Assembly (NCBI GenBank): GCA_965223905.1
Contig: CBDCXV010000002.1
Span: forward strand, 192,001 to 256,000
DNA from: Candidatus Latescibacterota bacterium
GTDB taxonomy: Bacteria; Latescibacterota; UBA2968; UBA8231
Length of the DNA: 64,000 nucleotides
Direction of reading: 5' to 3'
This document shows positions 3,673 to 26,227 of the stretch, one piece after another. The first letter of the stretch is position 1. The number at the start of each line of letters is the position of its first letter. Under the pieces are notes generated by a model. That model was not told the DNA's origin and did not search any database. It saw nothing but the letters and a program-made list of their open reading frames with translations. The position numbers and the translations under genes were made by a program.

Positions 3673-4380
3673 TCACGAGCGCCTCTTCAGCCTCGGTCCG
3701 TCCGGCAGGTCCTCGACCTCGAACCCCGCTGCGAGGATTCGGGCCCTGAGGGCGTCGGCAGTCCCGTAATCGCGCTGCCGGCGGGCCTCGGTTCGCCGCC
3801 GTGCCATCTCCATGACCTCGGCCGGAATCTCCTCACGCGGCGGTTCCCAGTTCGCCAGACCGAGGCCGAGCACGCCGTCAAAGGCCAGCAACGTTCCCTT
3901 TTTCACTTCGTCGGGAAGCTCCGACCGCACCAAGCCCCAGACCACGGCCAGGGCCTGTGGCATGTTGAGGTCGCTGTTCAGGCAGCGTTTGAAAGCCTTG
4001 ATGGAGGCAGGGTTCGGATCCCCGGCAGGACCCCATGCGAGCGCAGCCCGGCGCAGCCGTTCCAGGGCAGCCGTGGCCGCGTCAAGGGCTTCCCAGTTGA
4101 AGGTGAGAGGCCGCCGGTAGTGCGCCCCGAGCAGGAACATCCGGTAGGCCAGCGGGTCGTATCCCGCCTCGACCAGGCGGTCGAGCGTCAGGAAGGACCC
4201 GCTCGACTTGGACATGCGCTCGTCATCGAACACCAGAAACCGGCCGTGCATCCAGAAGCGGGCCAGCAGGGTCCCGTAGCAGGCCTCGGCTTGAGCGATC
4301 TCGTTCACATGGTGAATGGTCAGATGGTCTTCGCCGCCGCAGTGGATGTCGAAGTACGGGCCCAGACGGGATTCCGCCAT
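3673..4380 (-). pseudogene. cysS: C-terminal half of cysteinyl-tRNA synthetase (5'-truncated)
   Basis: FDIHCGGEDH..HH.NEIAQ, RMSKS, DLNMPQAL and DALR motifs; in-frame ECVAM just upstream; the HIGH-containing N-terminal half is absent. Confidence 0.8.
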
Positions 4381-4412
4381 GGCTACGCATTCCGTTGTGG
4401 GAGTGAACGGCC

Positions 4413-4820
4413 CTAAGCGCCCGTCGATCGTCGCTGCACATAGCTGAGGGCAGCGCGTGCGAGCAGCCCGGACCGCGTCTCCCCCTCCCGGGCCGCGGCC
4501 TCGTCCACGATGGCCAGCACCCGGGCCGGCACGGTGATGTTGATCCGCCTTGCCTTGCTCGACAGCTTGGAGATGTCGACTGAAACCAGCGCCCAGATCC
4601 CATCCCCGTCCTCGTTGGCCTGGTGTGTCTCGAGCGGGGCCTGCTCGGGTACCGGCTCGCCGTCCATGAGCAAGCCCTCGATGTGGCAGGCGACGGCCTC
4701 GTGAGCGGATTCGATAGCCTCTTCGAGTGTATCTCCGGCCGAGAAGCAGCCGGGCAGATCCGGCACGGTGACTCCATATCCGGTCTCTTCGTCTTTGTGA
4801 ATCACAACTGGAAAACGCAT
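4413..4820 (-). CDS. hicB: HicB family antitoxin with C-terminal RHH
   Basis: YGVTVPDLPGCFSAGDTLEEA, then RINITVP...RSGLL. Confidence 0.92.
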   Translation of the reverse strand: MRFPVVIHKDEETGYGVTVPDLPGCFSAGDTLEEAIESAHEAVACHIEGLLMDGEPVPEQAPLETHQANEDGDGIWALVSVDISKLSSKARRINITVPARVLAIVDEAAAREGETRSGLLARAALSYVQRRSTGA

Positions 4821-5014
4821 CAGCTATCCTCCCATTTCCATTGAGCCTGCCGGTAAATGTTGCGCAGCGTCCCGATCGGAATGTCCTTGCTCGGATGCTT
4901 TACCGTAACCCGTCCGGGCTTCTCGGGGTGGGTGAAATGATGGTGGCTTCCCCGCGTGTTCCTGAGCACCCAGCCGTCCCGCTTCAACTTCCGGATTATG
5001 TCCGTGCTCTTCAT
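4820..5014 (-). CDS. hicA: HicA family mRNA interferase toxin
   Basis: GWVLRNTRGSHHHFTHP..PGRVTVKHP.KDIPIGTL; stop overlaps the hicB start. Confidence 0.92.
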   Translation of the reverse strand: MKSTDIIRKLKRDGWVLRNTRGSHHHFTHPEKPGRVTVKHPSKDIPIGTLRNIYRQAQWKWEDS

Positions 5015-5016
5015 AA

Positions 5017-5050
5017 GTGTGTAATATACACACCACTTTCCCGGTATCAA
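5017..5050 (-). promoter_or_regulatory. hicAB promoter (TTGATA-16 nt-TATATT) with overlapping palindromic HicB operator
   Basis: Perfect inverted repeat GTGTGTA-ATA-TACACAC at 5017-5033 covers the -10 box, which lies 8 nt upstream of the hicA ATG. Confidence 0.65.
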
Positions 5051-5175
5051 CGATGGGAATTATCCAGTCGTCTCGATGCCGACTTTGCGGCGTACTACCG
5101 CAACAGCGGTCCCGGTTCGCAAACAGTGAGCGAGAAGGGCTGACGGTGCGCCGACATTGACAAGGAGATGCCGCC

Positions 5176-12676: not shown

Positions 12677-13538
12677 TCACGCGGAATTGCGCGTGTCCGG
12701 CTGGAGGATGTGGGCGGCCTCCCTGTCGATGAAGTCCTGGAAGTCCGCGGCGAGGGCGAGGCTCTCGCCGGTGGCGATGCGGACCGGGGAGCGCCGCGTC
12801 AGCTCGGCGAACCCGTCGACGTCCCGGGGCCGCAGGGCTTCCTCGAGGAAATGGACTCCGTACCTGGCGGCGACCTCGGCGGCGCGCACCGCGTCATCGA
12901 CGGAGTGACCGGGATCGAGGTACGCCGGGCAGCCGAAATCGAGCATCAGCAGCATCTCCGGGCCGATCCCCTCGCGAATGGCGGCGAGGGTCTCCTCGTC
13001 TTCCGCGGAGAAGTGGTTGCCCCAGCCCAGCTTCACCGCCTTGAAACCGCGCTCCCGGTAAGTGACGCACTCGGCGATCATCTCTCCGGGCCGTCCGCCG
13101 CCGGGGGGCCTCCGGGTCGTAGTCGTGCGGGAAGGCGCTGGTGCTCGCGTAAACCATGATTTGGTTCTGGACGACGTCGCCGACGAGCCGGTGAACCGGC
13201 AGCCCGGCCGCCTTGCCGGCGATGTCCCAGAGGGCGATGTCGACCGCGGCAAGGGCGTTGACGGCGATCCCTCCCTCGTCGCCGCGGCCGAACCAGCCGC
13301 CGTCGAACAGTCGTTGCCAGAGCTCGGCCGGCCGCGTCGGGTCGGCGCCGAGGAGGAGGCCGCGGAACGGAGGCTCGGGTCCGGGCAGCTCCGGGGAGGA
13401 GTCGAGCAGCGCCGACACCGGGCGGGTCCAGGAGGCGGTGGCGCCGATACCGGTGATGCCGGCGTCGGTGTCGACCTCGACGAGGGGGAAGTCCCGGGGG
13501 AAGCCGCGGCTGACGACGCGGATGTCGGTGATCTTCAT
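12677..13538 (-). pseudogene. Mandelate racemase/muconate lactonizing enzyme family (frameshifted, 3' end missing)
   Basis: VEVDTDAGITGIG, AAVDIALWDIAGK, GFKAVK, LMLD, FLEEAL, IATGE, ILQPD; homology stops after ILQPD. Confidence 0.75.
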
Positions 13539-13596: not shown

Positions 13597-14553
13597 CTAC
13601 GGCATGGAAAGCTTTCTTGTTCCTATCACTTCTACAGAAGTTCCTTCCTGCTCGAAGGCCGGGGGTGGATCTTCGGAATGTGGATCTCCGGAATAATATT
13701 GAGACCAGCGAAGTTCGTACTGGTCCCGATCCATCAGCGTAATGTCGTCCGTTTCACCCTCGTTGCCTTCATCGAGTCCGTATCCAAAGGAGACGCCGCC
13801 CAAATCAGATAGGATATAGCGGTTGTGGAGCTGCTCGCCTCCTTGTTTCTGGCGCAACCTGCGCACCCGGACTTGCCTTTCCTCGGGGACACATCGGGGA
13901 AGCCTCCTCTCGCACTCTTCCCGAAAAAACTCCTCCGTTCCCGTATGATCCGCCGCAGTATGTACCTCAATGCACTTCGGCATCCCGCCGGGACGCTGGC
14001 GAATCATTGCTTCAAGGAAGGCTTCAAAGGGACGCCGGTAACGAGGCTTCTCGGGCCCAAAATAAGGGTCGACGAAAATCACAATCGAGCTGCAGCGGAG
14101 TAAAGAAGCCACAGCCTCGGCCATGTCTGAAGCTTTCCTCGGCACGGTGAGCCCACGCTGCACCGCCCAATGTTCTGTAGCGCTGTCATCCAGGTCGCTC
14201 TCCGTCAGCACCTGAGCGTGGCTGTTCGGGTTGGTTCGGGCAAGGATAGCGTGGAAAGGCCGCTCGTCGTGCTCGCGCTCGGCGTTCTCTCGCCAACTTG
14301 TGGAATCATCCCACTGAACATTGCTCCGCCGAACCATTCGTTCTGATAGCCGGGCGAGGAGTTCCACGAGTCGGGTTTGAGCTAAATCATCGGTAGTTTC
14401 AATGGCGTCCCACACGAGTCTTTTCCATCGCTTTGGGTACCGGGAGACAACTCTTCCCTGGCCAAACTCGAAACTTTGCATGTAATGGCGGCAATCACGC
14501 CGATCCGTCCAGCCCGCTACCAATTGGGGTTCCAGTGCATACTCGTAAATCAC
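13597..14553 (-). CDS. Hypothetical protein with a C-terminal PLD/MIT_C-like motif
   Basis: IFVDPYF and LHNRYILSDLGGVSFGYGLD (HxRxxxxD, an HKD-like variant); starts 3 nt after the ATPase stop. Confidence 0.6.
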   Translation of the reverse strand: MIYEYALEPQLVAGWTDRRDCRHYMQSFEFGQGRVVSRYPKRWKRLVWDAIETTDDLAQTRLVELLARLSERMVRRSNVQWDDSTSWRENAEREHDERPFHAILARTNPNSHAQVLTESDLDDSATEHWAVQRGLTVPRKASDMAEAVASLLRCSSIVIFVDPYFGPEKPRYRRPFEAFLEAMIRQRPGGMPKCIEVHTAADHTGTEEFFREECERRLPRCVPEERQVRVRRLRQKQGGEQLHNRYILSDLGGVSFGYGLDEGNEGETDDITLMDRDQYELRWSQYYSGDPHSEDPPPAFEQEGTSVEVIGTRKLSMP

Positions 14554-14556
14554 GCT

Positions 14557-16389
14557 TCAGAACAGTTCCTTCGAGCGCTCGGGGAAGAAGCCTTCGGGCC
14601 ATGGTCGCTCGAACTCGCCGTCGGCCGTCACCGGGATGTGGAGAATCTCGGTATCCCCTCGCCCGGGCTGGACGTAAAGGACGGAGACCTGCTCCGGGTG
14701 GACTTCGGGGAGGCCCTTTGGAAGCTCGCCATCGGTAGTTTCCCGGATCCGCCGCAGGATGCGCAACAACAGGTGTTCGCTGTGAGTCTCGATGAGGAGG
14801 GTGTTGCCGCTCCCGCCAAGGGCCGATTCGATAAAGACATCACCCAGCTCGGCCTGAAGCGCCGGGTGCAGGTGAATCTCGGGCTGCTCGATCGCCAGGA
14901 GCTTCTTTTGCCAAGCATAGGCGGAGACCAGCACCGGGAGCACTTGGCTGACTCCGATGCCGACATCGCGGTGGCTCACGGGAGTGCCGGTGCGTTTGTC
15001 GATGAGAACGAGATCCTGAAGTACTTCGGGCCGTGCCTCGACCAGTTCTTCGGCCCAGCGTTCAGACAGGGCCTCCTCGTCGCTCGCCGCAGCCACGAGC
15101 TCCTCGATCTCGGGGATGATGTCGTCCGGGTTTTCCGCGTTGTACCCGGCGACTTGCTCGGAAACTTCATCCGCCAGCCTCGCCAGTTCAGGTTCCCCGT
15201 CCCCCTGCCGTCTTCGGAGAAGGGAAGCAGCGAGATCGTAAAGCGCCTTGTGAAGTTTGGACGGAAGCTCCCTTGAGACTACTGAAGCGGGCAGCAGGTC
15301 GCGCACTTCGAGCTGGTAGGGTGTCTTCAGGCGGTCCGGGTTGCCAAGCCACCTGTTCACCCGCTGTCGGACATCCTCGTTGGTGCGCACCACGTCCCAG
15401 GCATAGCCGCCCCCTGCGAACCAATTGGGGTCATGATGTTGTGAGAAAGCCAGATGGCGAGGCGGGTACGACCTCAGCGGACCGAGGTACTGGAGTTGGC
15501 GTATCTCGTTCTCAAGCACCGTGACGATTACCTCGACGAGCTCAGTGAACGCCAGGGCCAGAAACCGCTGGGCAGGGGATGAAAGATCCTCCTGTCCCCG
15601 TCCGCGAGAAGTGATGTCACCCCAGCCTTCCGCATCCTCCCCGATCCGGGGGAACAGGCCGCTGCTCCTGGCGGCAATGTCGGGGACCAGGGCGTCGATC
15701 TCCTTGCGGAGGTCGTCGACCAATTCCCCCTCACGCATTTCCTGGGTGGGTGTCACCCGCTTCAGAACCTCTGGAAGGAGCTCGCGGAATACTGGATGGC
15801 CGGAGTCGAACCGATCCAGGCGCAGGAGCCCGCCCGGCCGTGTGCTCATGGAGAGCAGCGGTGTGCCGTCCACCTCCAGCGCGAAGCGCTCGAGAAGTGG
15901 ACCGCTCTCCCGGCCGAACCCGCGAGCCCGGTCCCCTGACCGGGTCCGGTGATCGCTCGTGATCCCTTCCCCGATCCCCAGTTCCACCGCTATCTCGCGA
16001 GCCCGCTGCAGAAGCTCGGCCGCGCGTTCGGGACTCCGACTCGGGTATCCGTAGGTTTTTGAAAAAGCACCCACCCGCAAAAGCTCCGCCACGCGTTCGG
16101 TGAGGCGCCCCGGATCGAGTTCGAAACCCAGCTCGACCCGGCGGTCTCGGTCGCGCCGGTGCACGTATTGGAGAAAACCTCCGAGGTCTATGGTCTCTCC
16201 ACCGATCCGGGGCCGGTGGGTGTCGAGGTCTCCGGTCTCGATGGCGTGGTGGGCGAGTGCCAGGGCGTGCAGCACGCTCGACTTACCGGCGCTGTTGGCC
16301 CCATAGATCAGTGTGATCGGCCGCAGCGGTATCCTCTGGCTTGCGCCGAATGCCTTGAAGTTGGCGATGCGGAAAGCGGTGAGGTTCAA
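14557..16389 (-). CDS. ABC-type ATPase (AAA_15/AAA_21) with C-terminal DUF3696
   Basis: IANFKAF, Walker A GANSAGKS, signature VGIGVSQVLP, IEQPEIHLHP, ETHSEH, WPEGFF. TTG 16389 is the likely start; the ORF extends to 16494. Confidence 0.85.
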   Translation of the reverse strand: MNLTAFRIANFKAFGASQRIPLRPITLIYGANSAGKSSVLHALALAHHAIETGDLDTHRPRIGGETIDLGGFLQYVHRRDRDRRVELGFELDPGRLTERVAELLRVGAFSKTYGYPSRSPERAAELLQRAREIAVELGIGEGITSDHRTRSGDRARGFGRESGPLLERFALEVDGTPLLSMSTRPGGLLRLDRFDSGHPVFRELLPEVLKRVTPTQEMREGELVDDLRKEIDALVPDIAARSSGLFPRIGEDAEGWGDITSRGRGQEDLSSPAQRFLALAFTELVEVIVTVLENEIRQLQYLGPLRSYPPRHLAFSQHHDPNWFAGGGYAWDVVRTNEDVRQRVNRWLGNPDRLKTPYQLEVRDLLPASVVSRELPSKLHKALYDLAASLLRRRQGDGEPELARLADEVSEQVAGYNAENPDDIIPEIEELVAAASDEEALSERWAEELVEARPEVLQDLVLIDKRTGTPVSHRDVGIGVSQVLPVLVSAYAWQKKLLAIEQPEIHLHPALQAELGDVFIESALGGSGNTLLIETHSEHLLLRILRRIRETTDGELPKGLPEVHPEQVSVLYVQPGRGDTEILHIPVTADGEFERPWPEGFFPERSKELF

Positions 16390-16444
16390 TTCCGGTCTCC
16401 CGCAGGAGTCGCCATATCCGCGGTCATCATAGTGTTCCTTTTTT

Positions 16445-16580
16445 CTACCGCTCGAACTGCTCGAATTCGCTTGCCGCGTGGGAAATCCCTTCAAGGCAAA
16501 GGCGATCGATCAGGTCAAGGGAAGTCGAAGTCCATTCGTCGTCCTGGTGCTGCTGGTAGGTCCGGAAGGTCAGCTTTGCC
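16445..16580 (-). pseudogene. 3'-end remnant of a deleted gene
   Basis: Protein-like frame KLTFRTYQQHQDDEWTSTSLDLIDRLCLEGISHAASEFEQFER* with no start, joined to the PIN remnant. Confidence 0.35.
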
Positions 16581-16670
16581 GGCGCAGCAGATCGCCGTTA
16601 GTATCTCGATTGATGTGGGGAAGTACGCACCGAGTGGTCTCGGCATGGACTCGTCAAACAACAGCTTCAT
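16515..16670 (-). pseudogene. DUF5615 (VapC45-like PIN) toxin, truncated
   Basis: MKLLFDESMPRPL... overlapping the DUF433 gene; similarity is lost after about 30 codons. Confidence 0.7.
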
Positions 16671-16878
16671 CCGGGTCCCCGGTCAGCGCCACCTTCGCCG
16701 CTTTGAGCACCGCAATCGCCTGGTCGCGTGACACCGTCGGATAGCTGTCTAGGAAGTCATCGAGGCGATCCCCTGCTTCCAGGTGTTCGATCAGGATACG
16801 TATGGGGATCCTGGTTCCGGGAAACACCGGGGTTCCGCCGAGAATGCCCGGATATCTACCGATAACTTTGTCGTTCAT
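16654..16878 (-). CDS. DUF433 family antitoxin
   Basis: PGILGGTPVFPGTRIPI..L...L..G..LDDFLDSYPTVS. Confidence 0.9.
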   Translation of the reverse strand: MNDKVIGRYPGILGGTPVFPGTRIPIRILIEHLEAGDRLDDFLDSYPTVSRDQAIAVLKAAKVALTGDPDEAVV

Positions 16879-16917
16879 TTGATTCACCTTAGTTGTTCAA
16901 TTGGCACTTCGGGGCTG

Positions 16918-18126
16918 TTACCGATTTTTTGTGGAATATTTGGCAGGAGCGGTGAGTGTGCCCGAGAAGGCACGGTGCAAGATGCCGATGAACAGTGAAC
17001 TAATTCTGTCATGATTTGATCCCGTCAGATTCAGAATCTCCTTTGTCGCCTGTACCTGCATGGAGAATTCCTGCTGAAGTTCGAATGGCGGCACTGGAAT
17101 TTGGAGGGCCTTTAATCTGACGCCAGTCAAATGCGAGAAAGTCATTTTGGAGGCAGTGTCCCTTAATGCTCCGATATTTGCCAGTCGCCAGAGCAGAAAT
17201 ACGATATACTCAGGAGTCGCGGCATTTTGATAAGGACGCACCCTATGAAGAGCTTTCTGGAAGTAGCACTCCGGCAACTCATCGTTCCAGATCGCGCTGC
17301 GGCCCACTTCCCCGCCCTCACAAATTAGAATATCTCCCCTCCGAAGCCTGAACTCTTCACGGTCTGAGTCATTGAAGTCCATCTGGAGAACTTCCTGTAA
17401 ATCGATCCGATCCCAATAGACGTTTGCGTTTCGGAGGTAAGGGCGGGGATCCTTCCCAGTCTGCTGTTTCTGATCGAGCATTTTGCCGAGTCGAGATTCA
17501 CAAATCATGTCAAAACGTTTAATTGGCCAGCCCATCGGATTCGTTGCCGGGTCGCCGAACATCTTGATGAAAAGTGCAGGGAGGATGTGCCCGGCTTTGG
17601 CGTCGGCCTCCGCGCGGAGGCGACGGAGGCGGTAGGCTTGGTCGAGGATTTCAACGATGCGTCGTTGTTCGGAAAGCGGTGGAAGAGGGATTTCCATTTC
17701 CTTGATGTCGTTGTCGGAAACCGCCGGGTAATTCGCGCCTCTGACGCGTTCTGACAACACAGCGACAAAATCACGTGTGATCGTGAGATAAAACAAGAAG
17801 CGAGGTTCTACAACGGCATTATTTGCTCGTAGAACGCAAAAACCAGTTGAAGCAATTTGGCCATCGAGCTGGGCCGGAACCATAGCGACGGCGTTGAGGT
17901 TCGGACGTACCGTCGACACCAGGATGTCATCTTTTCGAATGTTTTTTCGTGCACGGCTCGGAGCATCAGCCCCTAACATGGTTTGATGTTCTGCAATTGT
18001 CTTATGGATACGGTCGATTCCGGCGATGTCAACGTAATTGAACTCGCCGGAAATCTCGCGTCGAGGATCGCATTGCTCAGTGGGTTCGCAGACGTCACTG
18101 ATAGTTGCGATGTCCCACCCCATCAC
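16918..18126 (-). CDS. hsdS: Type I R-M specificity subunit
   Basis: Two TRDs, IPLPPLSEQRRIV and IPVPPFELQ conserved regions, MFGDPATNPMGW. Confidence 0.93.
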   Translation of the reverse strand: MMGWDIATISDVCEPTEQCDPRREISGEFNYVDIAGIDRIHKTIAEHQTMLGADAPSRARKNIRKDDILVSTVRPNLNAVAMVPAQLDGQIASTGFCVLRANNAVVEPRFLFYLTITRDFVAVLSERVRGANYPAVSDNDIKEMEIPLPPLSEQRRIVEILDQAYRLRRLRAEADAKAGHILPALFIKMFGDPATNPMGWPIKRFDMICESRLGKMLDQKQQTGKDPRPYLRNANVYWDRIDLQEVLQMDFNDSDREEFRLRRGDILICEGGEVGRSAIWNDELPECYFQKALHRVRPYQNAATPEYIVFLLWRLANIGALRDTASKMTFSHLTGVRLKALQIPVPPFELQQEFSMQVQATKEILNLTGSNHDRISSLFIGILHRAFSGTLTAPAKYSTKNR

Positions 18127-18521
18127 GCCCCCTCCATCTCTTCCAACTTCCCCCGTAACTGTTCAAGCAACGCCTCGACAAGCCCGAGCGCCGCTTTGCG
18201 ATAGATCGGCTCGGTACTCGCATCCACACCCCCATACCGGAACTCGACGGCATACGGCGTGTACACGGCCAGCTCTCGAAAAGCCGTCATGTCGACAGCC
18301 CGCGCGGCGAGCAGATCCACCAACCCCTCGATGTTGTGGGTAAGCGGGTAGGTCTCTCCGAGCAGTGCGAGCCAGGCCTTGAAGGATTTCTCGGCGGCCT
18401 GCTGCACGTGAAATCCGAAAACTTCGTCGGAGATTTCGTCCGAGCGGCACATGAATCGAAGTGCTTCGACATCGCGCTCGGCCGCATCGAGCAACATCCT
18501 GGCGCACTTAGGGTCGCTCAT
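18123..18521 (-). CDS. HEPN domain protein (PF05168-type)
   Basis: GFHVQQAAEKSFKAWL...YP.THNI..L...YAVEFRY. Confidence 0.88.
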   Translation of the reverse strand: MSDPKCARMLLDAAERDVEALRFMCRSDEISDEVFGFHVQQAAEKSFKAWLALLGETYPLTHNIEGLVDLLAARAVDMTAFRELAVYTPYAVEFRYGGVDASTEPIYRKAALGLVEALLEQLRGKLEEMEGA

Positions 18522-18843
18522 AAAGCACCCGCCCTTCCCGCAGTGCCCGCGCCAACACATGGTTGAGGGAGTCGCGCCAGTAGTCCACGTCATCTCGAGA
18601 GTAGACAAGGACGTCGGCTGCGACGGGAAAACCCGCCAGCGCGTGGTAGAGTCTGACCATCTCTTTGTGGCGGCTTCGTTCCGGACCGAACGGCTCGGCT
18701 TCCAAGACCACCAGATCGACGTCCGATTCCTCTCGCTCGTCGCCCCGGCCACGGGAGCCAAAGAGGATCACCTGCTCGGGATCGACCTCGTCGACGATGG
18801 CCTGAACCATCCGGTCGATGAGGGTGTCGGTGATCCGGGTCAT
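18508..18843 (-). CDS. Minimal nucleotidyltransferase (MNT)
   Basis: VILFGSRGRGD....SDVDL; start overlaps the hsdM stop. Confidence 0.9.
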   Translation of the reverse strand: MTRITDTLIDRMVQAIVDEVDPEQVILFGSRGRGDEREESDVDLVVLEAEPFGPERSRHKEMVRLYHALAGFPVAADVLVYSRDDVDYWRDSLNHVLARALREGRVLYERP

Positions 18844-20486
18844 TGCTCCACCTCTTCGAGCAGTTTCTCCAGCCCGGCGGTAATCTCCCGCTCGATCGCC
18901 AGCACCTCGCGGATCAGCTCCGCGGGATCCTCGTCCGGAACCGGCTCGGCAACGCGGGGCTTGTAGCGGGAGGCGGCGAGGTTGAAGTCGTTCTCGACGA
19001 GGGTCTCGAACGAGGCCCACCAGCAGCGGGGTTCGTCGCTGCCCGCGTCGAGCACGGCGCCGGCCTCCTCGCCGGGTGGTTTCTCGAAGCGCGATTCCTT
19101 GTAATCGTTCCAGGCCGACAGTAGCCCGGGGATGTCGTTCTCCCCCGGTGTCTCGGGACGGCCGCCTCCCTGGATCTTGTCGGGGTCGTAGCCGTCGTTG
19201 CGGATCTCGTAGAACCACACCTGCTTCGTCGCCGGACGGCCTTCTTCCGGCTCCGTTGCCGGGCGCCGCAGGACGAGCACGGAGGTCTTGACGCCGGCGT
19301 ACGGTTTGAACACGCCGGCCGGCAGCGATACCACCGCCTGCAGCTCGTACTCCCGCAGGAGCTTCTCGCGCAGCTCCTTGTGAGCTCTCGTCGAGCCGAA
19401 GAGCGCGCCCTCGGGCACGACCACGGCGCAACGTCCCCCCGGCGCCAGGGAGCGCAGCATCAGTGCGATGAACAACAGCTCGCTCTTTCTCGATTTTGTT
19501 GGCAGATCCTGGCGAATTGAGTCCCTGGGGATCTGGCCGGCAAAAGGCGGGTTCGAGAGGATCACCGCGTAGCGCCGGTTCAGGTCGTCCTCGGTGAGTC
19601 CGCTCATCTCGGAGAGTACGTTGGCGCGCTTGAGGCGGGCATGGCGGATCCCGTGGAGCACGAGATTCATGACGGAGATCCGCATCATCTGGCGCGATAC
19701 GTCGGTGCCGTACATCGATGCCTCGAGCCGGCTCCAGTCGGGAATCCTTTCCCCCGGTCCCTTCCGGTAGGTCTGGAGATTGGGGATCTCCTTCTTCGCC
19801 TCCTCGAGCGTCTGCCCCCGCTTCTCGAGCCAGTCCTCGCCGTAGACCGGCACTTCCTGAATCTCCTCGCTGTAGCGGGCGAGGATGTGATCGACGACGT
19901 CGATCAGGAAACCGGCCGTGCCGCAGGCCGGGTCGTACACGGTGTCGCCCAGGTCGGGACCGGTCATCTCGACCATGAAGGCGCGGATCTGGCGCGGGGT
20001 GCGGAACTGGCCGTTCAGCGCCGACTGTCCGAGATGGGTGAGCAGGTATTCGAAGATGTCGCCCTTGATGTCGGGCCCGAGCTTGCGGAAGTCGATGGAG
20101 TCGAACATGTCGATCACCTGCTTGAGCACGTTCGGATCGACGATCTCGAGCACGGCGTCGCGAAAGTACTCTGCCACCTGCGGATCGTCCTTGACCAGCG
20201 ACGCCATGTACGGGAAGACCTCGTCGCGGACGAAGTTGCGCAGATCCTCTCCGCTCTTGAAGCGCCACTTGGACCAGCGGAAGCGCTCGGCCTGCGCGGG
20301 GAAGAGGAGGGCGCGGTTCCCGGCGCCGAGCCGGCCTTGGAGCTCGCGGGTGGTTTCCTCCTCGTCGAGGAGTTTCAGGTAGATGAGGTAGGAGATCTGC
20401 TCGATGTAGGTGACGGGATTGGTCACGCCACCGGCCCACAGGATGTCGGTGATCTGGTCGAGTTGGCGCCGCAGTGTCTGGTCCAT
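18840..20486 (-). CDS. hsdM: Type I R-M N6-adenine methyltransferase
   Basis: GQFRTPR, YDPACGTAGFL, ILSNPPF, VVPEG.LFG, GVFKPYAGV. Confidence 0.95.
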   Translation of the reverse strand: MDQTLRRQLDQITDILWAGGVTNPVTYIEQISYLIYLKLLDEEETTRELQGRLGAGNRALLFPAQAERFRWSKWRFKSGEDLRNFVRDEVFPYMASLVKDDPQVAEYFRDAVLEIVDPNVLKQVIDMFDSIDFRKLGPDIKGDIFEYLLTHLGQSALNGQFRTPRQIRAFMVEMTGPDLGDTVYDPACGTAGFLIDVVDHILARYSEEIQEVPVYGEDWLEKRGQTLEEAKKEIPNLQTYRKGPGERIPDWSRLEASMYGTDVSRQMMRISVMNLVLHGIRHARLKRANVLSEMSGLTEDDLNRRYAVILSNPPFAGQIPRDSIRQDLPTKSRKSELLFIALMLRSLAPGGRCAVVVPEGALFGSTRAHKELREKLLREYELQAVVSLPAGVFKPYAGVKTSVLVLRRPATEPEEGRPATKQVWFYEIRNDGYDPDKIQGGGRPETPGENDIPGLLSAWNDYKESRFEKPPGEEAGAVLDAGSDEPRCWWASFETLVENDFNLAASRYKPRVAEPVPDEDPAELIREVLAIEREITAGLEKLLEEVEQ

Positions 20487-20496
20487 CCCGTTCCTT

Positions 20497-23218
20497 TCAG
20501 CTCGCAGTCCTGAAAACGTCCTCGTCCAGCTGTCTCAACAACCTGCCTGAGCCCCTCCTCACCGAACAGCTCTACCCCCCTGCCGGCGGCGTCGAGAATC
20601 GACAGCGGCGGCTCGAACAGGTCGTTCAGGCGCACCCGGCCGGTGGCGATTCCCCGGTTTTTGAGCAGGCAGAGGTACTCCGCTTGCTGCGGGGTGAGGG
20701 CGCGCACTACGAGCCAGGCCCGGAAGGCCTCTTCCAGCTTCTCCTCGCGGCTCTTGATGCGCAGCCGCCCGAGCGCGGCGCGGATGAAGTCGACGAAGTT
20801 GCCTCCCGGGTCGCGGTAGGCGCGGCGCAGGTTCTCCTGGTTGAAGTAGTGCTCGGGCTGGTTGAGGCGGCGGGCAAGCTCCTCCTCTTCGGTCCGGCTC
20901 GAGATGCTCTTCGTCGCGCACCTTGCGGAGGAGCGGATCGTCGGCCGCCCGGGAGCGAATCGTCTCCACCCAGCGGGTTACGTACTCCTCCTTGTCGACG
21001 CGTTCTCCCTCGGGGCCGACCTCGACGTAGGTGACCGCCTCCAACCACTCGTCCTCCAGCCCGAGCTCGACGAGATCCCGCGTCTCCGGCCCTGTCCTGG
21101 GGCCGCTCGGGGCATGTCCTCCCGAAGTGCCGGTGAACACGTCGGTATCGCTGTCATTGAAGTACTGGTGGTTCCTGAAGAAGTCGTAGATGACAAATTT
21201 CCGCTTGTCGATATGCGGCGCAGTGCGCGTGCCCCGGCCTCGCATCTGCTGGTAGAGAATGGGGCTTCGCACCCGCCGGCAGAGCACGAGGTGGAGGATC
21301 TCGCGGCAGTCGAAGCCGGTGTCGAGCATTCCAACGCTCACCGCGACCATGGGCAAGGTTTCGGTCTTGAACCGGCGAATCAGGGTGTCCGGGTCGGCCA
21401 CGTCGGAGGTGATGACCTCGGCGTAGCGGCCCTTGTATTCGGGTGCAGCTCGTTCAAATACTGTGCCAGTCTCGCCGCGTGGTGCTTGGTGATGGCGAAG
21501 ACGATCGCCTTGCCCGGGCCCGGGTCCTGCCCGGGTGCCAGTTCCGCATAGCTCTCCCAGGCAAGCCGGTCGAACTCCTCCATCATCAGGCGGTTGGTCT
21601 CTTCGTTGGTCCAGCGCCGTTCGAACTCGACTGGGTCGTAGTGCTCGTCGTCGAGATCGGCCCCCTCGGCGAGGATCTCGGTGATGCCCGTGGCGAAGCG
21701 GTAGGGCACGAGGTATTCCTCGTTGAAGGCATCCTTTATTGAATAGGAGACGTCCGGTTTGCCCGGCTCGCACTGGTAGAAGTCGTAGGTGTTGCGCTCG
21801 ATGAAGCTTGCCGGCGTGGCCGTGAGTCCGATATGGAGGGCGTCGAATCGCGTGAGCGCTCCCTGCCAGGCGCCGTAGATGGAGCGGTGGCATTCGTCGG
21901 CGATGACGATGTCGAAGTAGCCGGCGGTATACTCGTCGACGCGGCCGATCATGGTCTGCAGCAGGGTAACGGTGATCTGCTGCTCCTGGCGCGCCATGCC
22001 GGGCCGCAGCCAGTAGCTCGAATACGCTCCCAAGACGTCCTGGATGGCTTCCAGGGCCTGCTTGGCGAGCTGGTCGCGGTCCGCCAGGAAGAGAATTCGC
22101 TCGGCCCAGCCTGCCTGCAGGAGTCGCTTCAGGTAGAGGCAGATGAGGTCGGTCTTGCCGGTACCGGTCGGCAGCTCGATCAGGAAGCGCCGCCTGCCGA
22201 GCTCCAGCGCGTGGTCGAGCGCCTGCATCGCGTCGGCCTGGTAGGGCCGCACCGTGCGCGTCTCCCCCTGGCGGATGTAGTGCTCCGGGATTTCGACGGT
22301 GGCGAGCGGCCTGCGCGTCTCCCGCGCCTCCACCATGCGCTCGAGGTCCCGCTGCGAGAAGAAGCCGGCGATGGGGCGGGCGTCGTCGTTCTGGTAGTCC
22401 CAGAAGTAGGTCAGCTCACCGTTGGTGAGGAAGATGAAGGGCGCTTCGAGCGCCTTGGCGTAGGGCAGGGCCTGTTGCTTCGCCACGTAGGGGTTGATGG
22501 CGTTCCTCTTGGCCTCGATGACGGCGAGCGGGCGGCCGCGCTGGTCGTAGAGGACGTAGTCGGCGCGGCCGGTTGAAGACTCGTCATCCGCGGCTTCGAG
22601 CTGGCAGACGAACTCGCCGATGACGCGGAGGTCCCCTTCTGCGCCTGGGTCGAAGACGAGGTCCTCGTAAGCCGGATCCGGATTGAGCGGCTGCAGCCGG
22701 ATTTCGCGATGGCTCCAGCTGTCCCCATCCGGTTCAGCTTCTTTCGTACTGCTGTATTTCTTGACGGAGAACTCGCCTCCGAGCGCCGGATCGGTGCAGC
22801 CGCGGTGCCAGACGAGGACGAGCTTTCCCTCCCTGGTCCCGCCGCGGTCCGTCCGAAACAGACAGTAGGAACCGTCGGGGATGGCCGGCTCCATAGAGTG
22901 CCCTTCGATGCGGGCAACGAAGTGGTCGCGGGTGAGCCGGACGCGGCCCGGCACCGCCATCCAGCCGATTTCGTCATGCTCGGTTCCGACGGTCTGGTCC
23001 GGGCTGAATTTTCCTGCCGCGGCAACGAGACCGTAGACCGGGGCGTGCGTTTCGAATGGCCTCGCTCCCACGCGGTCGACGATTCCGGCGCGACCGGGTG
23101 CGGAAGCCGCCTGGACCTCGGTACCGACCATCGACTGGTCGTCCGCGTCCCAGCCGGACTGCGCCAACAGTTCGTCGATAACTATGCGGGCGTCCGCCTC
23201 GTTTTCGCGCCGGTTCAT
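20497..23218 (-). CDS. hsdR: Type I R-M restriction subunit with inserted S24 peptidase domain (frameshifts near 21440, 20890 and 20535)
   Basis: NEADAR..ID, RADYVL, IEAKR, PTGTGKT, DECHRS, LTATP, VGMLDTGFD, QMRGRGTR; C-terminal part is split across frames. Confidence 0.88.
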
Positions 23219-23252
23219 CTTGTTCTTCCTCGTCCATGGGAAATTAGATGAA

Positions 23253-23268
23253 TGCAAAGCGCGTGCCA
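23253..23268 (-). promoter_or_regulatory. sigma54 (-24/-12) promoter of the hsdRMS operon
   Basis: Minus strand reads TGGCACGCGCTTTGCA, matching TGGCACG-N4-TTGCW; 34 nt upstream of the hsdR ATG, with a GAGGA RBS in between. Confidence 0.85.
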
Positions 23269-24777
23269 TCATTCGCCCACCCCGTAGCGTTTCATCCAGT
23301 TGGTGAGGGTCTGGTAGCTGGGCAGGCCGACGAGGTCGGCCGCCCTGGTCTTGTTGCCCTGCGCCTCGTCCAGGGCCCTCTCCAGGTAGTGGCGGGCCAC
23401 GGATGCCAGAATTCCGGGCAGGTCGAGACCGTCGCCGAGGGGCTTGCCAAGCACCGATCCCTTTTCGGTTTCGCCCGCGGGCAGGAGGGCGTCGCGAAGG
23501 TCCTCCGTCCTCAGCGTGGCTTCCGGGGTCCAGATCGCCGCGCGTCCCAGGGTGTTCTGCAGTTCGCGGACATTTCCGGGCCACGGGTGCGCGAGAAGAA
23601 GGTTTCTCGCTCCGGAAGAAAGTTCCTTCTCCACGAATCCCGGCTGCCCCCGCCCCTCCCGGTTCACGAGGGCGAGAATGTGATCGATCAGGATCGGGAG
23701 ATCGTCGCGCCGGTCCCGTAACGGGGGCAGTGGCAGCACCGCCACCGCCAGGCGGTGGAAGAGGTCTTCGCGAAAGGCGCCTGTCGACACTTCGGACAGG
23801 AGAGAGCGGTTGGTGGCGGCGATCATTCGCACGTCCACCTTGCGGCTGCGCGAGGTGCCGACCGGAAGCACCTCCCCCTCCTGGAGCGCGCGCAGCAGCT
23901 TCACCTGCGCGGGCTTGGGAAGCTCTCCCACCTCGTCGAGGAAGAGGGAGCCCCCGGATGCTTCCTCGAAATGGCCTTTGCGGTCCTTCACAGCCCCGGT
24001 GAAAGCCCCCTTTACGTGACCGAACAGCTCGGATTCGACGATCTCCGGAGGAATGGCGCCGCAGTTGACGGCCACGAAAGGCTTGTCGCGCCGCGGACTG
24101 GTGCGATGGATGGCGCGGGCGAGAAGCTCCTTGCCGGTACCTGTCTCCCCTTCGATCAGCACCGGCACGGAGCGCGGGGCGACCCGGCGCGCCCGCAGGA
24201 TCACGCGCTGCATGGCCTGGCTCCGGTGCAGGATCTCCTCGAATTCCGGCGCCTCCGGGGAGAGACCGGCGCTGAGGCGCTCGAGCTCCTCGTCCGGGCG
24301 GCGCAGCAGATCCGGAAGGAAGTCTGCTGAAATATCGAAGGGGACGGACACCGTGCTGACGCCGTGCTGCTTCGAGGACTCGATCAGCTCCGCGGGAAAG
24401 CGCGTCTTCGCGAGGATGATCCATACCGCGGCCATGGCCGGCGTGCCCGGGCTCAGGTGGAAAGTGAGCTCAGTGTCTCTGGGGCCGCCGGCCAAGGCCG
24501 TCTCGCAGGCGCGGACCGCGGCGACGTAGATCTCGCCGAATTGGGTAGGACCGGTGAGCTCTTCGTGGACCAGGTGAAGGGTGGGGCCTTCACATCGCTT
24601 TTCGAGCCACTGCCGGTAGGGGCGAACGGCGCCGGCCTCGTGGTCGAACAGCAGATAGGCGTCATCGAACTCGCGCTCCATCAGGGCCTGGGCAACCGGC
24701 CCGGCTCCGGTTGTCGGCTCCTCTTCGGGAGCGTCCAGGTCCGTATTTCCAATCCAGGTGATGAGGATTCTGCGCAT
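23269..24777 (-). CDS. sigma54 enhancer-binding protein with RtcR-like N-terminal domain
   Basis: [37 protein letters not shown], Fis-type HTH; N-terminal ITWIGNTD...HLSPGTP.M...W. Confidence 0.9.
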
Positions 24778-25195
24778 GGGAACAATGCTAACAAGAAAAA
24801 TTGTGATTCCGCAAGTTTGTTTATTCTTGATGTGGGGCGTGTGGCAGTAGGTAAGGTCTCTGACAGGGTTAGGCTACCAATTTGGCGAAATACACCGATT
24901 CTGGGCGGAGCACAGTCAGGTTCTACCCTGTAAGGGGAAAGAAGCCACTCACCACCTCGAAATGTCCGGATTGTCTTCCAATGGTGCTCGAGAAAGGGGG
25001 TGCGGAGGTTACAAGGACACGGAAATAGCCGTTATTTTGGCTCGAAATGGGCAATACATGGCTTTATAGCCGAAATATAAAATAATAATAGAAGAATTTA
25101 TCGCGATATAACTATTTATTTTTTGTTGAATCAAGGTATCTTTGATGGCAGGTCCCCAAACCTGGTGCCACAACCTGGAAAGGAGCCACCTCCTC

Positions 25196-26227
25196 ATGAA
25201 AATCGACCCCGAGAGCCTTCGATGCCTTCGCCAGAAAAAAAAGCTGTCACGCGCCCGGCTTGCCGAACGGTCTGGAATCGCGGTACGAACCATTCAGCGT
25301 CTGGAAAACGAACCGCAGCGATGTCAGAAATCGCGAGAGGACACGCTGAACCGGCTAGCCAAGGCACTCGATGTCGAAACGGATGTGCTTACCGGCCAGT
25401 CACCACTTCCCGAGTTTGATAAGCCCCCTGCCTCTGCCCCCAAGGGGGTCCAGATCGGCGCGCAGGTCGCTCCTTTGACCCGGCTCTTCTACGACCTCGT
25501 TAAGCGCCGATACGGCGTCAGCGTCACTGAGATCATCAACATGGCGCCGCTTTTCTTCGCGCTTCTGGCCGAGGGAAGTCTTGCTTGGAGGCGCATAAAA
25601 ATAGAGGAGGCAGAAGAAGCGAAAGGTCATTTGGAGGGGATCGAAGGGTTCTGGATTGGGAGCCTTGTATCTGCCTCAATAGTCATGGAAGAAGGGATTG
25701 GGGCGGAAATTGATTCCATCGAAAAAGCCGACCTTTTCGGAGAGCATCTCTTCAGGGTCGAATCTAGTTGGATGGATGATTTGTTCGACCCCTCCGCCAC
25801 CAACCCGTTCGCAAGCCATTTGCGTGGGTTGAAAGATGAACTCGCCAAACCCGGCGTCGTCGACGTGGGGGAGGGCGCTCTCGATTTCAGATCGTCGCTA
25901 AAATTCCCCGACTACGACATTTGCCGTGACGAACTCGACGACATGGCCAACGGTTCTTTCAACGCAAAGAAGGCTCTTGAAACTGGCTACGCGCGGCTCT
26001 CCGAAATTCCCGAGGAACTGATGGGAGAAGACGCCGGCGAGGAGCGCGCGAAATGGCTCGAAGACAGACTGCCGGATCAGTTTCAGAAAATCCTGAAGGA
26101 TGAGAAGGTTGGAGACGAGATCGTAGAAATCGTGGCAAAAGACCCAGAAGGCACTTGGAAAAGGGTCTTGGAAAAAGCGGGTGCCAATGAGGCGGATACC
26201 AGTAGTAAGGTGGGAGACAACCAATGA
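25196..26227 (+). CDS. XRE-family HTH protein with a large acidic C-terminal domain
   Basis: LRQKKKLSRARLAERSGIAVRTIQRLEN...LAKALDV; AGGAG upstream. Confidence 0.8.
   Translation: MKIDPESLRCLRQKKKLSRARLAERSGIAVRTIQRLENEPQRCQKSREDTLNRLAKALDVETDVLTGQSPLPEFDKPPASAPKGVQIGAQVAPLTRLFYDLVKRRYGVSVTEIINMAPLFFALLAEGSLAWRRIKIEEAEEAKGHLEGIEGFWIGSLVSASIVMEEGIGAEIDSIEKADLFGEHLFRVESSWMDDLFDPSATNPFASHLRGLKDELAKPGVVDVGEGALDFRSSLKFPDYDICRDELDDMANGSFNAKKALETGYARLSEIPEELMGEDAGEERAKWLEDRLPDQFQKILKDEKVGDEIVEIVAKDPEGTWKRVLEKAGANEADTSSKVGDNQ

Follow-up and report, generated by a model that had tools for sequence, protein, structure and literature searches.

Restriction-modification (R-M) is usually treated as constitutive innate immunity. 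Among activators of the sigma-54 polymerase, the rtcR gene is divergent from rtcBA. PspF, which lacks a sensor domain and likewise lies divergent to its target pspA, has sites overlapping its own promoter and is thereby autoregulated. In the part of PMC9650030 that deals with the regulator, RtcR deprived of its CARF domain is described as constitutively active in vitro, with CARF being an inhibitory sensor. CARF-AAA+-HTH regulators have been predicted to activate downstream R-M genes via sigma-54 upon a signal sensed by CARF, as set out in the accessible section on these proteins (Makarova, 2014; PMC4012209). In the corresponding section of a later paper, an RtcR homologue heads defence superoperons that contain type I R-M, Druantia, Shield and CoCoNuT, and sigma-54 activation of the neighbouring R-M and defence genes is likewise predicted (Bell, 2024; PMC11090510). 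The original prediction for the locus studied here, which regarded the regulatory logic as uncharacterised, was too strong in view of these two papers. Our literature searches returned no experimental test of the predicted sigma-54 gating of R-M, no relevant paper linking RpoN, hsdR and an enhancer-binding protein (in titles and abstracts), none joining sigma-54, anti-phage and enhancer-binding protein, none joining CARF7 and RtcR, and none relevant on HsdR and S24 among the matches listed.

The locus lies in a 64,000-nucleotide stretch of a Candidatus Latescibacterota genome, referred to as the window (contig CBDCXV010000002.1, positions 192,001 to 256,000), and all genes described are on its minus strand. 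The first of them encodes a 502-residue sigma-54 activator (23269-24777) with a CARF domain (residues ~1-170, 24268-24777), an AAA+ domain (residues 183-346, 23740-24231) and an HTH_8 domain (residues 461-498, 23284-23397), as judged from Pfam, PADLOC, a structure model and Foldseek. Pfam matches were Sigma54_activat (E 1.2e-68), HTH_8 (E 5.7e-6) and AAA_lid_14, and the KGAFTGA motif was seen intact in the alignment. The protein thus combines the GAFTGA-bearing AAA+ domain and the C-terminal HTH of NtrC-class bacterial enhancer-binding proteins (bEBPs). The PADLOC profile RtcR_PspF2--CARF_AAA_HTH matched over the full length (residues 3-500, E 2.1e-196), which together with the R-M neighbourhood places the activator in the R-M-linked CARF_AAA_HTH group of the RtcR_PspF2 family. 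The postulated RtcR-like bEBP with intact GAFTGA was thereby confirmed.

As the full-length structure model was poor (pLDDT 62), the N-terminus was folded alone, giving a model with pLDDT 77.9 and pTM 0.74 that was built on 11 sequences only. Foldseek found 34 matches to this model at E<=0.001 (best E 8.8e-8); the list was headed by Csm6, Can2, Card1, Cami1 and ring nucleases, and the top matches were all CARF proteins. The strand order of the model is that of a Rossmann-like six-stranded fold with a beta5/beta6 hairpin. According to the model, the N-terminus is a CARF fold and the architecture of the activator is RtcR-like. The suggestion of an RtcR/CARF-type N-terminus therefore held for CARF and not for the Pfam RtcR domain, PF06956, which had no match in the activator at E<=0.01 and none across the whole genome at E<=0.001. 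The rtcB gene sits on another contig and the genes downstream of the activator are R-M genes, so that neither mark of RtcR proper, PF06956 or adjacent rtcB/rtcA, is present. Because PF06956 is unmatched and rtcB lies elsewhere, the ligand of RtcR, 2',3'-cyclic-phosphate RNA, cannot simply be transferred to this activator by analogy. The sigma factor demanded by the prediction is available: the genome holds one rpoN copy (Sigma54_DBD E 1.2e-59, 509-aa open frame) alongside about 16 strong Sigma54_activat matches.

The activator gene ends with TGA, and on the very next base (23268) begins the sigma-54 -24/-12 box TGGCACGCGCTTTGCA (23253-23268, minus strand). It matches TGGCACG-N4-TTGCW exactly, with GG and GC elements at canonical spacing, just as a near-perfect sigma-54 promoter had been announced behind the bEBP stop codon. 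The exact pattern occurs once in the window, with 0.01 expected and one of 100 shuffles containing it. Genome-wide it occurs twice in 7.9 Mb, about the number that composition leads one to expect by chance (2). The case for the box is accordingly made by its position and conservation and not by the match itself. From the usual 12-nt spacing, transcription is predicted to start near 23242. Terminator-like sites in the region were as frequent as expected (9 versus 10.4), and the scan placed none between the activator gene and the box and none at the borders of the operon genes.

We therefore rest the promoter assignment on comparison with related loci. The first genome profile scan used a full-length alignment and was dominated by generic activators, owing to a generic AAA+ motif among its two patterns, and only two of the loci (L003 and L004) covered the activator N-terminus. 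The later genome and metagenome scans relied on an alignment of the N-terminus only. Within the phylum 30 loci were fetched, 26 of them full-length, and the box stands behind the activator in 20 of these 26, the window's own included. The metagenome set comprised 80 loci, 67 of which could be evaluated for the box. A stricter pattern was found in 35 of the 67 (background, 0.0056 per window), and a relaxed pattern, written after viewing the misses of the stricter one and with its background measured on the same loci, in 60 of the 67 against 0.039 expected per window. In 41 of these 60 the box starts at offset +1 from the activator stop. Conservation of the box between bEBP and hsdR, put forward as a check of the original prediction, thus came out strongly positive. 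No box was detected behind the activator in six of the 26 full-length phylum loci, and five of the six adjoin HAD, enolase-like or GH3 genes rather than defence genes; the activator can thus persist without a sigma-54 promoter behind it. What follows the box varies. Among 59 loci the first open reading frame was of HsdR type in 45, an AAA_15 ATPase in five, HsdM or another methylase in three, HATPase_c in two and without a family in four. Cargo units can each carry a box of their own, with three boxes in one locus (L124) and two in another (L125).

The related loci also share a 15-bp dyad with the consensus ACAAGAATTCTTGTA, which is likely the activator binding site. In the window, O1 (ATAAACAAACTTGCG, 24810-24824, minus strand) lies 47 nt before the activator start codon and is weak (6.2 bits), its position being homologous to the -45/-47 site seen across loci, and O2 (ACAATTTTTCTTGTT, 24790-24804, minus strand) lies 27 nt before the start codon and scores 11.4 bits. 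O2 overlaps a -10-like TAGCAT. As this element ends 7 nt from the ATG, a leaderless activator mRNA is probable. At 11 bits, 64 of 66 loci had at least one site upstream of the start codon, and at 9 bits both were present in 49 of 66, counted with a matrix that was trained on these same sites; the background was 0.002-0.006 per 80 nt. The internal sites and the codon test described below constitute the independent part of the evidence.

An internal dyad pair, I-A and I-B, is situated in the activator coding sequence (23596-23630, minus strand) at codons K384-S387 and A390-L394, respectively, and is the candidate enhancer. An internal dyad was present in 40 of 68 loci at 11 bits and in 52 of 68 at 9 bits. 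The window's copies are weak (1.5 and 4.8 bits), yet the rare codons AGA, CTT and TCT are kept. Codon use at these positions was examined in 40 non-redundant activator genes with GC>=0.60, which are relatives (<90% identity), so that the binomial p-values are overstated. At the internal dyads GCA was used in 36 of 40 cases (8.8% elsewhere), AGR in 31 of 33 (8.2%), TCT in 32 of 39 (6.7%) and CTT in 26 of 34 and 31 of 36 (12.4%). A family-wide synonymous scan in 15-codon bins yielded only shallow dips in diversity and no marked constraint in the last 60 codons; the constraint became apparent only when codons 384-394 were tested singly. The enhancer had been expected inside the 3' end of the bEBP gene. 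Its placement within the gene is supported by the dyad pair with rare codons, which is found ~340-360 bp ahead of the box rather than at the extreme 3' end. The secondary boxes are accompanied by a single dyad, 132 and 145 nt upstream. A conserved CACGGYGTGGAARTTG upstream of the secondary boxes was considered as an enhancer and rejected, as the same codons abut the box in the window; it is more plausibly a leftover of the activator 3' end.

Downstream of the box, a Shine-Dalgarno sequence GAGGAAG (23230-23224) precedes the ATG of hsdR at 23218. The hsdR gene (20497-23218; EcoEI_R_C type, delineated by Pfam, comparison with an intact orthologue and contigs of other runs) is followed by hsdM (18840-20486; HsdM_N plus N6_Mtase by Pfam and PADLOC), which is intact. 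The start of a gene for an antitoxin-like MNT nucleotidyltransferase (18508-18843) overlaps the hsdM stop (ATGA), the gene for a HEPN-domain protein of a toxin-like RNase family (18123-18530) starts 23 nt inside MNT, and the GTG start of an intact hsdS with two target-recognition domains (16918-18126) overlaps the HEPN stop (GTGA). Matches to Polbeta/NTP_transf_2 and HEPN in overlapping genes identify a HEPN-MNT pair. The order, ribosome-binding site and overlapping junctions of the proposed coupled operon were all recovered; its hsdR, however, contains three frameshifts, and the locus as assembled does not encode a type I system with HsdR, HsdM and HsdS all intact. An island tail on the same strand (13597-16887) comprises a DUF433 gene (16654-16887), an AAA_21/AAA_15/DUF3696 ATPase (14557 to ~16388) and its 318-aa partner (13597-14553); the search of this tail revealed no separate sigma-54 box.

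The N-terminal nuclease domain of HsdR is interrupted by a LexA-type S24 peptidase insert (residues 60-204, 22607-23041, minus strand; Pfam and alignment). The Peptidase_S24 match reached 32.3 bits with a cut-off of 23.3, so that the insert claimed originally is real. It carries the Ala-Gly motif and a Ser-Lys dyad (Ser in GHSMEP, Lys in SVKK). Across 18 relatives, A71/A73/G74, S113 and K158 show conservation of at least 90%; we take their roles to be those of the equivalent residues of LexA. PDB sequence searches with the S24 region and with an HsdR profile found no LexA or UmuD, and the assignment to Peptidase S24 is based on Pfam and the motifs. The insert may act as a post-translational switch of HsdR.

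Several other explanations were weighed against a functional, activator-driven switch. A box matching by chance is the least credible of them, and we give it hardly any weight: the agreement between matches seen and expected genome-wide speaks for it, and it is contradicted by the comparative data, with 0.01 matches expected per window and the box at the same place in 60 of 67 unrelated loci. The box could also be a genuine sigma-54 promoter served by another activator, the adjacent one controlling something else. The roughly 16 Sigma54_activat matches in the genome and the six family members of the phylum without a box leave room for this; nevertheless, in different phyla the activator is accompanied by the box with single-base spacing, and the dyads occupy fixed places within the same cassette, and we consider this very unlikely. 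A more serious alternative is that the operon is always on by read-through from the sigma-70-type promoter of the activator, and that the box only modulates, either as a boost or as a roadblock of RpoN-polymerase, so that restriction is not truly inducible. In its favour, the box directly adjoins the stop codon, and the scan placed no terminator-like site there or at the gene borders of the operon. Moreover, in type I systems a silent methylase would leave the chromosome unprotected once hsdR is switched on. On the other side, the precisely placed, conserved box and the fixed dyads speak for a role of activation, as does secondary cargo that has its own box and dyad far from any activator gene. 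We regard constant expression as a real possibility that falls somewhat short of an even chance.

Evenly balanced, in our estimation, is the question whether the module in this genome is a decaying remnant, with an hsdR pseudogene, an orphan methylase/specificity pair plus MNT-HEPN, and eroding switch sites. Compared with the intact 910-aa orthologue of a genome of the same genus (L112), hsdR is not one open frame: one base is lost at 21443 and one gained at both 20892 and 20533, and translation of the assembled gene ends at 21380 after 612 aa. The three frame-breaking indels all fall within hsdR (2.7 kb), and the remaining 7.2 kb of island genes are free of them. Contigs from four runs of four studies have the unshifted form at all three places, whereas a contig from run X1 (depth 8.4) has the window's form at 21440, though X1 may be the window's own source sample and so not independent. 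Dyad scores of just 1.5 to 11.4 bits in the window, and HsdR proteins of <650 aa in seven of the best 120 relatives, fit with decay as well; on the other hand, truncation at contig ends may account for the short relatives, and the indels all touch short same-base runs and could be consensus errors of the assembly. A broken cysS (3673-4380), considered as a test of assembly indels, was dropped as uninformative, being a truncated fragment beside a HicAB pair.

Our preferred explanation, which we hold with considerable confidence, is a portable regulator-promoter cassette set before defence genes. The activator would be a sigma-54 enhancer-binding protein with the CARF domain as sensor that, by analogy with RtcR, would keep the AAA+ motor inactive until its ligand is bound. 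As the sensor hardly differs between loci with different cargo, the signal is probably a generic infection or damage cue and not something made by the cargo. The activator probably binds the 15-bp dyads via its Fis-type HTH: the pair over its own promoter would bring about autoregulation, and the second pair, inside the coding sequence, would, judging from its conservation, serve as enhancer. The active protein would remodel RpoN-RNA polymerase bound at the box, and transcription would then proceed through hsdR(S24)-hsdM-MNT-HEPN-hsdS and possibly into the ATPase pair. With no terminator between the activator gene and the box, basal read-through expression is expected; we infer that it may suffice for methylation of the genome, and that the signal would add a sigma-54 boost instead of operating a strict off/on gate. 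Because of the three frameshifts in hsdR, the restriction arm in this genome looks dead, judged from the assembled sequence, with methylase, specificity subunit, MNT-HEPN and switch intact.

More tentatively, and with rather more doubt than belief, the cassette can be viewed as indivisible and mobile, with one CARF sensor commanding swappable defence cargo. The enhancer would then be a second code in the activator coding sequence that is kept by rare codons, and the promoter would be fused to the stop codon. Cargo would be swapped or stacked by recombination at the conserved activator 3' end, and each stacked unit would retain a piece of this end together with one dyad and a separate box. In the S24-HsdR lineage, RecA-triggered self-cleavage in the nuclease domain might add restriction alleviation.

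If the cassette works as proposed, R-M here would be sensor-gated, and restriction, HEPN and ATPase effectors would be raised only when the CARF domain detects trouble. The locus and its relatives supply a base-exact promoter, a predicted start and candidate sites that can be removed by synonymous recoding, and the sensor domain is conserved enough for ligand screening. This genome's copy is a poor bench choice because its hsdR is frameshifted. The value of the system is that of a well-mapped test case and not of a new principle.

With RtcR-rtcBA of E. coli and Salmonella the locus has in common a CARF-AAA+-HTH activator and a sigma-54 promoter. It differs in that the activator is devoid of PF06956, its target is not rtcBA and its gene is co-directional with the target and abuts it. 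As in PspF-pspA, candidate activator sites overlap the activator's own promoter; in contrast to that pair, one pair of candidate sites is inside coding sequence and the activator has a CARF sensor. The HsdR insert shares the Pfam S24 match and the conserved Ala-Gly, Ser and Lys with the self-cleaving domains of LexA and UmuD, but sits inside the N-terminal nuclease domain instead of forming a C-terminal tail, and its self-cleavage is putative. The superoperons, as portrayed in the accessible part of their description, share with our locus an RtcR homologue 5' of a train of defence genes in the same direction that includes HsdR, HsdM and HsdS (Bell, 2024; PMC11090510), whereas our locus has a single R-M system, MNT-HEPN and an ATPase pair as cargo. 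None of the genes scanned by Pfam at 1-32400 encodes the McrB/McrC-like CnuB/CnuC or the CnuH helicase of CoCoNuT. Closest are the RtcR_PspF-type regulators (PADLOC PDLC01995), which have the same domain order and R-M neighbourhood and whose profile matches our activator over its full length; the prediction made for them, in the section available, names no promoter, binding sites or test (Makarova, 2014; PMC4012209), whereas here the box, its placement to the single base and the candidate sites have been mapped.

Alignment and domain searches bore out the predicted order of activator gene, sigma-54 box and restriction operon on the minus strand, with the qualification that hsdR itself is frameshifted. 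The activator (23269-24777, 502 aa) matches the Pfam families Sigma54_activat (E 1.2e-68), AAA_lid_14 and HTH_8, and its GAFTGA motif is intact in the alignment. On the base after its TGA stop codon begins an exact match to the sigma-54 consensus, TGGCACGCGCTTTGCA (23268-23253, minus strand), followed by a Shine-Dalgarno sequence and the hsdR ATG at 23218. The genes hsdM, MNT, HEPN and hsdS come next with overlapping stop and start codons, and the same-strand tail of the island comprises a DUF433 gene, an AAA_21/AAA_15/DUF3696 ATPase gene and the gene for a 318-aa partner. Sigma-54 gating presupposes rpoN, of which the genome carries one copy, and about 16 strong activator matches were counted genome-wide. 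The segment 23219-23237 (minus strand), which runs from an upstream ATG (23237) to that of hsdR, differs in length among relatives, with 1-4-base indels in contigs of other runs; some homologues have it in frame, as an annotated N-terminal extension (MDE...). The DUF433 gene and a short, apparently truncated ORF that separate hsdS from the ATPase gene (16510-16887, minus strand) may be a decayed toxin-antitoxin pair. Elsewhere in the window (3673-5100, minus strand), a C-terminal cysteinyl-tRNA synthetase fragment adjoins a HicA/HicB-like pair that occupies other reading frames, an arrangement that looks like an insertion scar.

Compared with the intact 910-aa orthologue of a same-genus genome, hsdR has lost one base at 21443 (CCCC to CCC) and gained one each at 20892 and 20533. 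The frame as assembled stops at 21380; the remaining genes of the island, 7.2 kb in total, are intact. The frameshifts may mark a pseudogene or may be assembly errors. In contigs of four runs, each from a different study, the sequence is unshifted at all three places, and one contig of a further sequencing run, X1, has the window's form at 21440. X1 may be the window's source sample, so that this agreement may not be independent. As assembled, the copy in the window carries a broken hsdR.

The N-terminal sensor (residues 1-180) has no Pfam match. The PADLOC model RtcR_PspF2--CARF_AAA_HTH covers the whole activator (E 2.1e-196), and a structure model of residues 1-180 built from 11 sequences (pLDDT 77.9, pTM 0.74) contains four Rossmann strands plus a hairpin. 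The proposed CARF-like character of the sensor was substantiated by a Foldseek search against the PDB, in which the 34 matches at E<=0.001 were CARF proteins, led by Csm6 (E 8.8e-8) and followed by Can2, Card1, Cami1 and ring nucleases. Because the Pfam RtcR domain was matched neither in the activator nor anywhere in the genome, and the genome's only rtcB is on a different contig, the activator is not RtcR proper. Residues 1-180 are matched by 3466 proteins at E<=0.001, the best 120 of which are 64-96% identical and come from sources whose names span several phyla; the sensor is very conserved and widespread.

Shuffling of the window gave 0.01 exact sigma-54 matches, and the two found genome-wide are about the number predicted by base composition; what makes the case is therefore where the box lies and that it is conserved, not the match itself. 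The sensor is present in 33 of 168 genomes of the phylum. Thirty loci were fetched, from which two truncated ones and two in which a regular expression did not find the N-terminal motif were dropped, and a box lay within -20 to +80 of the stop codon in 20 of the 26 full-length loci, the window's own counted. A metagenome scan by alignment of the N-terminus only yielded 80 loci, of which 67 were evaluable after removal of eight running off the contig end, four with frames <=430 aa and one with <100 nt downstream. The stricter box pattern was found in 35 of the 67 (background 0.0056 per scanned interval) and a relaxed pattern, written post hoc after inspection of the misses, in 60 (0.039 expected per scanned interval), at offset +1 from the stop in 41 of these 60. 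In many sites gained by relaxing the pattern, TTGA replaces the consensus TTGC at -12. Among metagenome loci L138-L195, DUF4145-type HsdR cargo mostly goes with TTGA, a lineage-specific promoter variant. Conservation of the box, the check that the original prediction called for, thus holds in both samples.

Ahead of the activator start codon, at about -45 and -25, stand two copies of a 15-bp dyad (matrix consensus ACAAGAATTCTTGTA) spaced 20 bp apart. Of 66 loci, 64 have at least one copy (11 bits) and 49 have both (9 bits), at a background of 0.002-0.006 per 80 nt. The 3' halves fit a -35-like TTGTGn and a -10-like TAnnnT element separated by a 17-bp spacer, the -10-like element ending about 7 nt ahead of the ATG; from this overlap we infer that the activator is autoregulated and its mRNA leaderless. 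Further copies of the dyad occur within the activator gene, at -362 and -342 relative to the stop codon (40 of 68 loci at 11 bits, 52 at 9 bits), where they form the codons for K-K-L-S and A-R-N-L-L. In 40 non-redundant activator genes with GC>=0.60, the internal dyads use GCA for Ala in 36/40 cases (8.8% elsewhere in the same genes), AGA/AGG for Arg in 31/33 (8.2%), TCT for Ser in 32/39 (6.7%) and CTT for Leu in 26/34 at codon 386 and 31/36 at codon 393 (12.4% for both). Rare codons are thus fixed at these sites, a large effect even though the p-values are overstated because the genes are relatives. The internal dyads are candidate enhancer sites, now mapped; the window's own copies are weak (upstream O1 6.2 and O2 11.4 bits, internal I-A 1.5 and I-B 4.8 bits). 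The AT-rich gap between the activator and its upstream neighbour, a divergent XRE-family HTH gene (25142-26227, plus strand, 361 aa), holds a perfect 10-bp palindrome, TATCGCGATA (25099-25108). A same-genus relative has no such neighbour, and homology stops at the activator start.

The cargo behind the activator varies. Of the 67 metagenome loci, 59 have a downstream ORF that reaches 120 aa; the first such ORF was of HsdR type in 45, an AAA_15 ATPase in five, HsdM or another methylase in three, a HATPase_c protein in two and without a family at E<=1e-6 in four. HsdR-type cargo comes in three forms: one of about 912 aa that contains the S24 insert, one of about 1140 aa that contains DUF4145, and a plain one of about 760 aa. 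Extension of 20 phylum loci placed type I restriction-modification next to the activator in two, a large methylase/specificity/AAA_16 set in one, a truncated activator in one, and HAD/enolase-like/GH3 neighbours with no box behind the activator in six. The commonest cargo in the phylum, in ten loci (among the homologous loci L120-L131, including L124 and L125), is an AAA_15(/DUF3696) ATPase and, after it, an unannotated protein (about 320 aa). Every such pair has its own box, with three pairs in L124 and two in L125; the window's pair (13597-16388, minus strand) lies behind hsdS without one. Of the PADLOC models, NsnB, PDC-M55A and HEC-03B come nearest to the pair. The partner matches nothing in Pfam or PADLOC, and its Atlas look-alikes are hypothetical proteins, with MIT_C in 13% of the members of one cluster. 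Upstream of the secondary boxes of L124 and L125 lie a single dyad, 132 and 145 nt away, and degenerate copies of the activator 3' end (L124:7434-7755, L124:10738-11059, L125:8794-9115), whose scores were matched or exceeded by 0 to 1 of 500 shuffles. These remnants suggest that cargo units were stacked by recombination at the conserved activator 3' end. A truncated enolase-superfamily gene (MR_MLE_C; 12677-13252, minus strand) flanks the island. Six related genomes have an intact HAD/MR_MLE/GH3 set as the immediate neighbour of an activator without a box; the site therefore looks like a conserved chromosomal place of cargo gain and loss.

The S24 insert (HsdR residues 60-204) separates the first helix of the nuclease domain from its core, and exactly this piece is missing from aligned plain relatives. 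S24-inserted HsdR is widespread: the best 120 matches are at least 72% identical, and 112 of them carry precomputed PF00717. Contigs of matching size in both match lists suggest that it often shares a contig with the activator. Conservation reaches at least 90% at the Ala-Gly motif, at the Ser of G-x-S-M-E-P and at the Lys of S-V-K-K. LexA undergoes RecA-stimulated cleavage; by analogy, such a cut at the insert would split the nuclease domain and might act as built-in restriction alleviation. A literature search found no paper on S24-bearing HsdR.

The regulatory logic had been taken as uncharacterised, but its principle is not new. Passages of Makarova et al. (2014, PMC4012209) describe RtcR-like CARF-AAA-HTH proteins not linked to Rtc as often associated with restriction-modification systems and predict them to be sigma-54 activators of downstream genes, responding to signals such as 2',3'-cyclic-phosphate RNA or a phage nucleotide. 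In passages of Bell et al. (2024, PMC11090510), RtcR homologues stand at the head of co-directional runs of defence genes, type I restriction-modification among them. No experimental test of the predicted sigma-54 control of restriction-modification genes by RtcR-like activators was found in the literature search. The wiring is supported as far as sequence alone permits: the box is conserved, and candidate enhancer sites are mapped.
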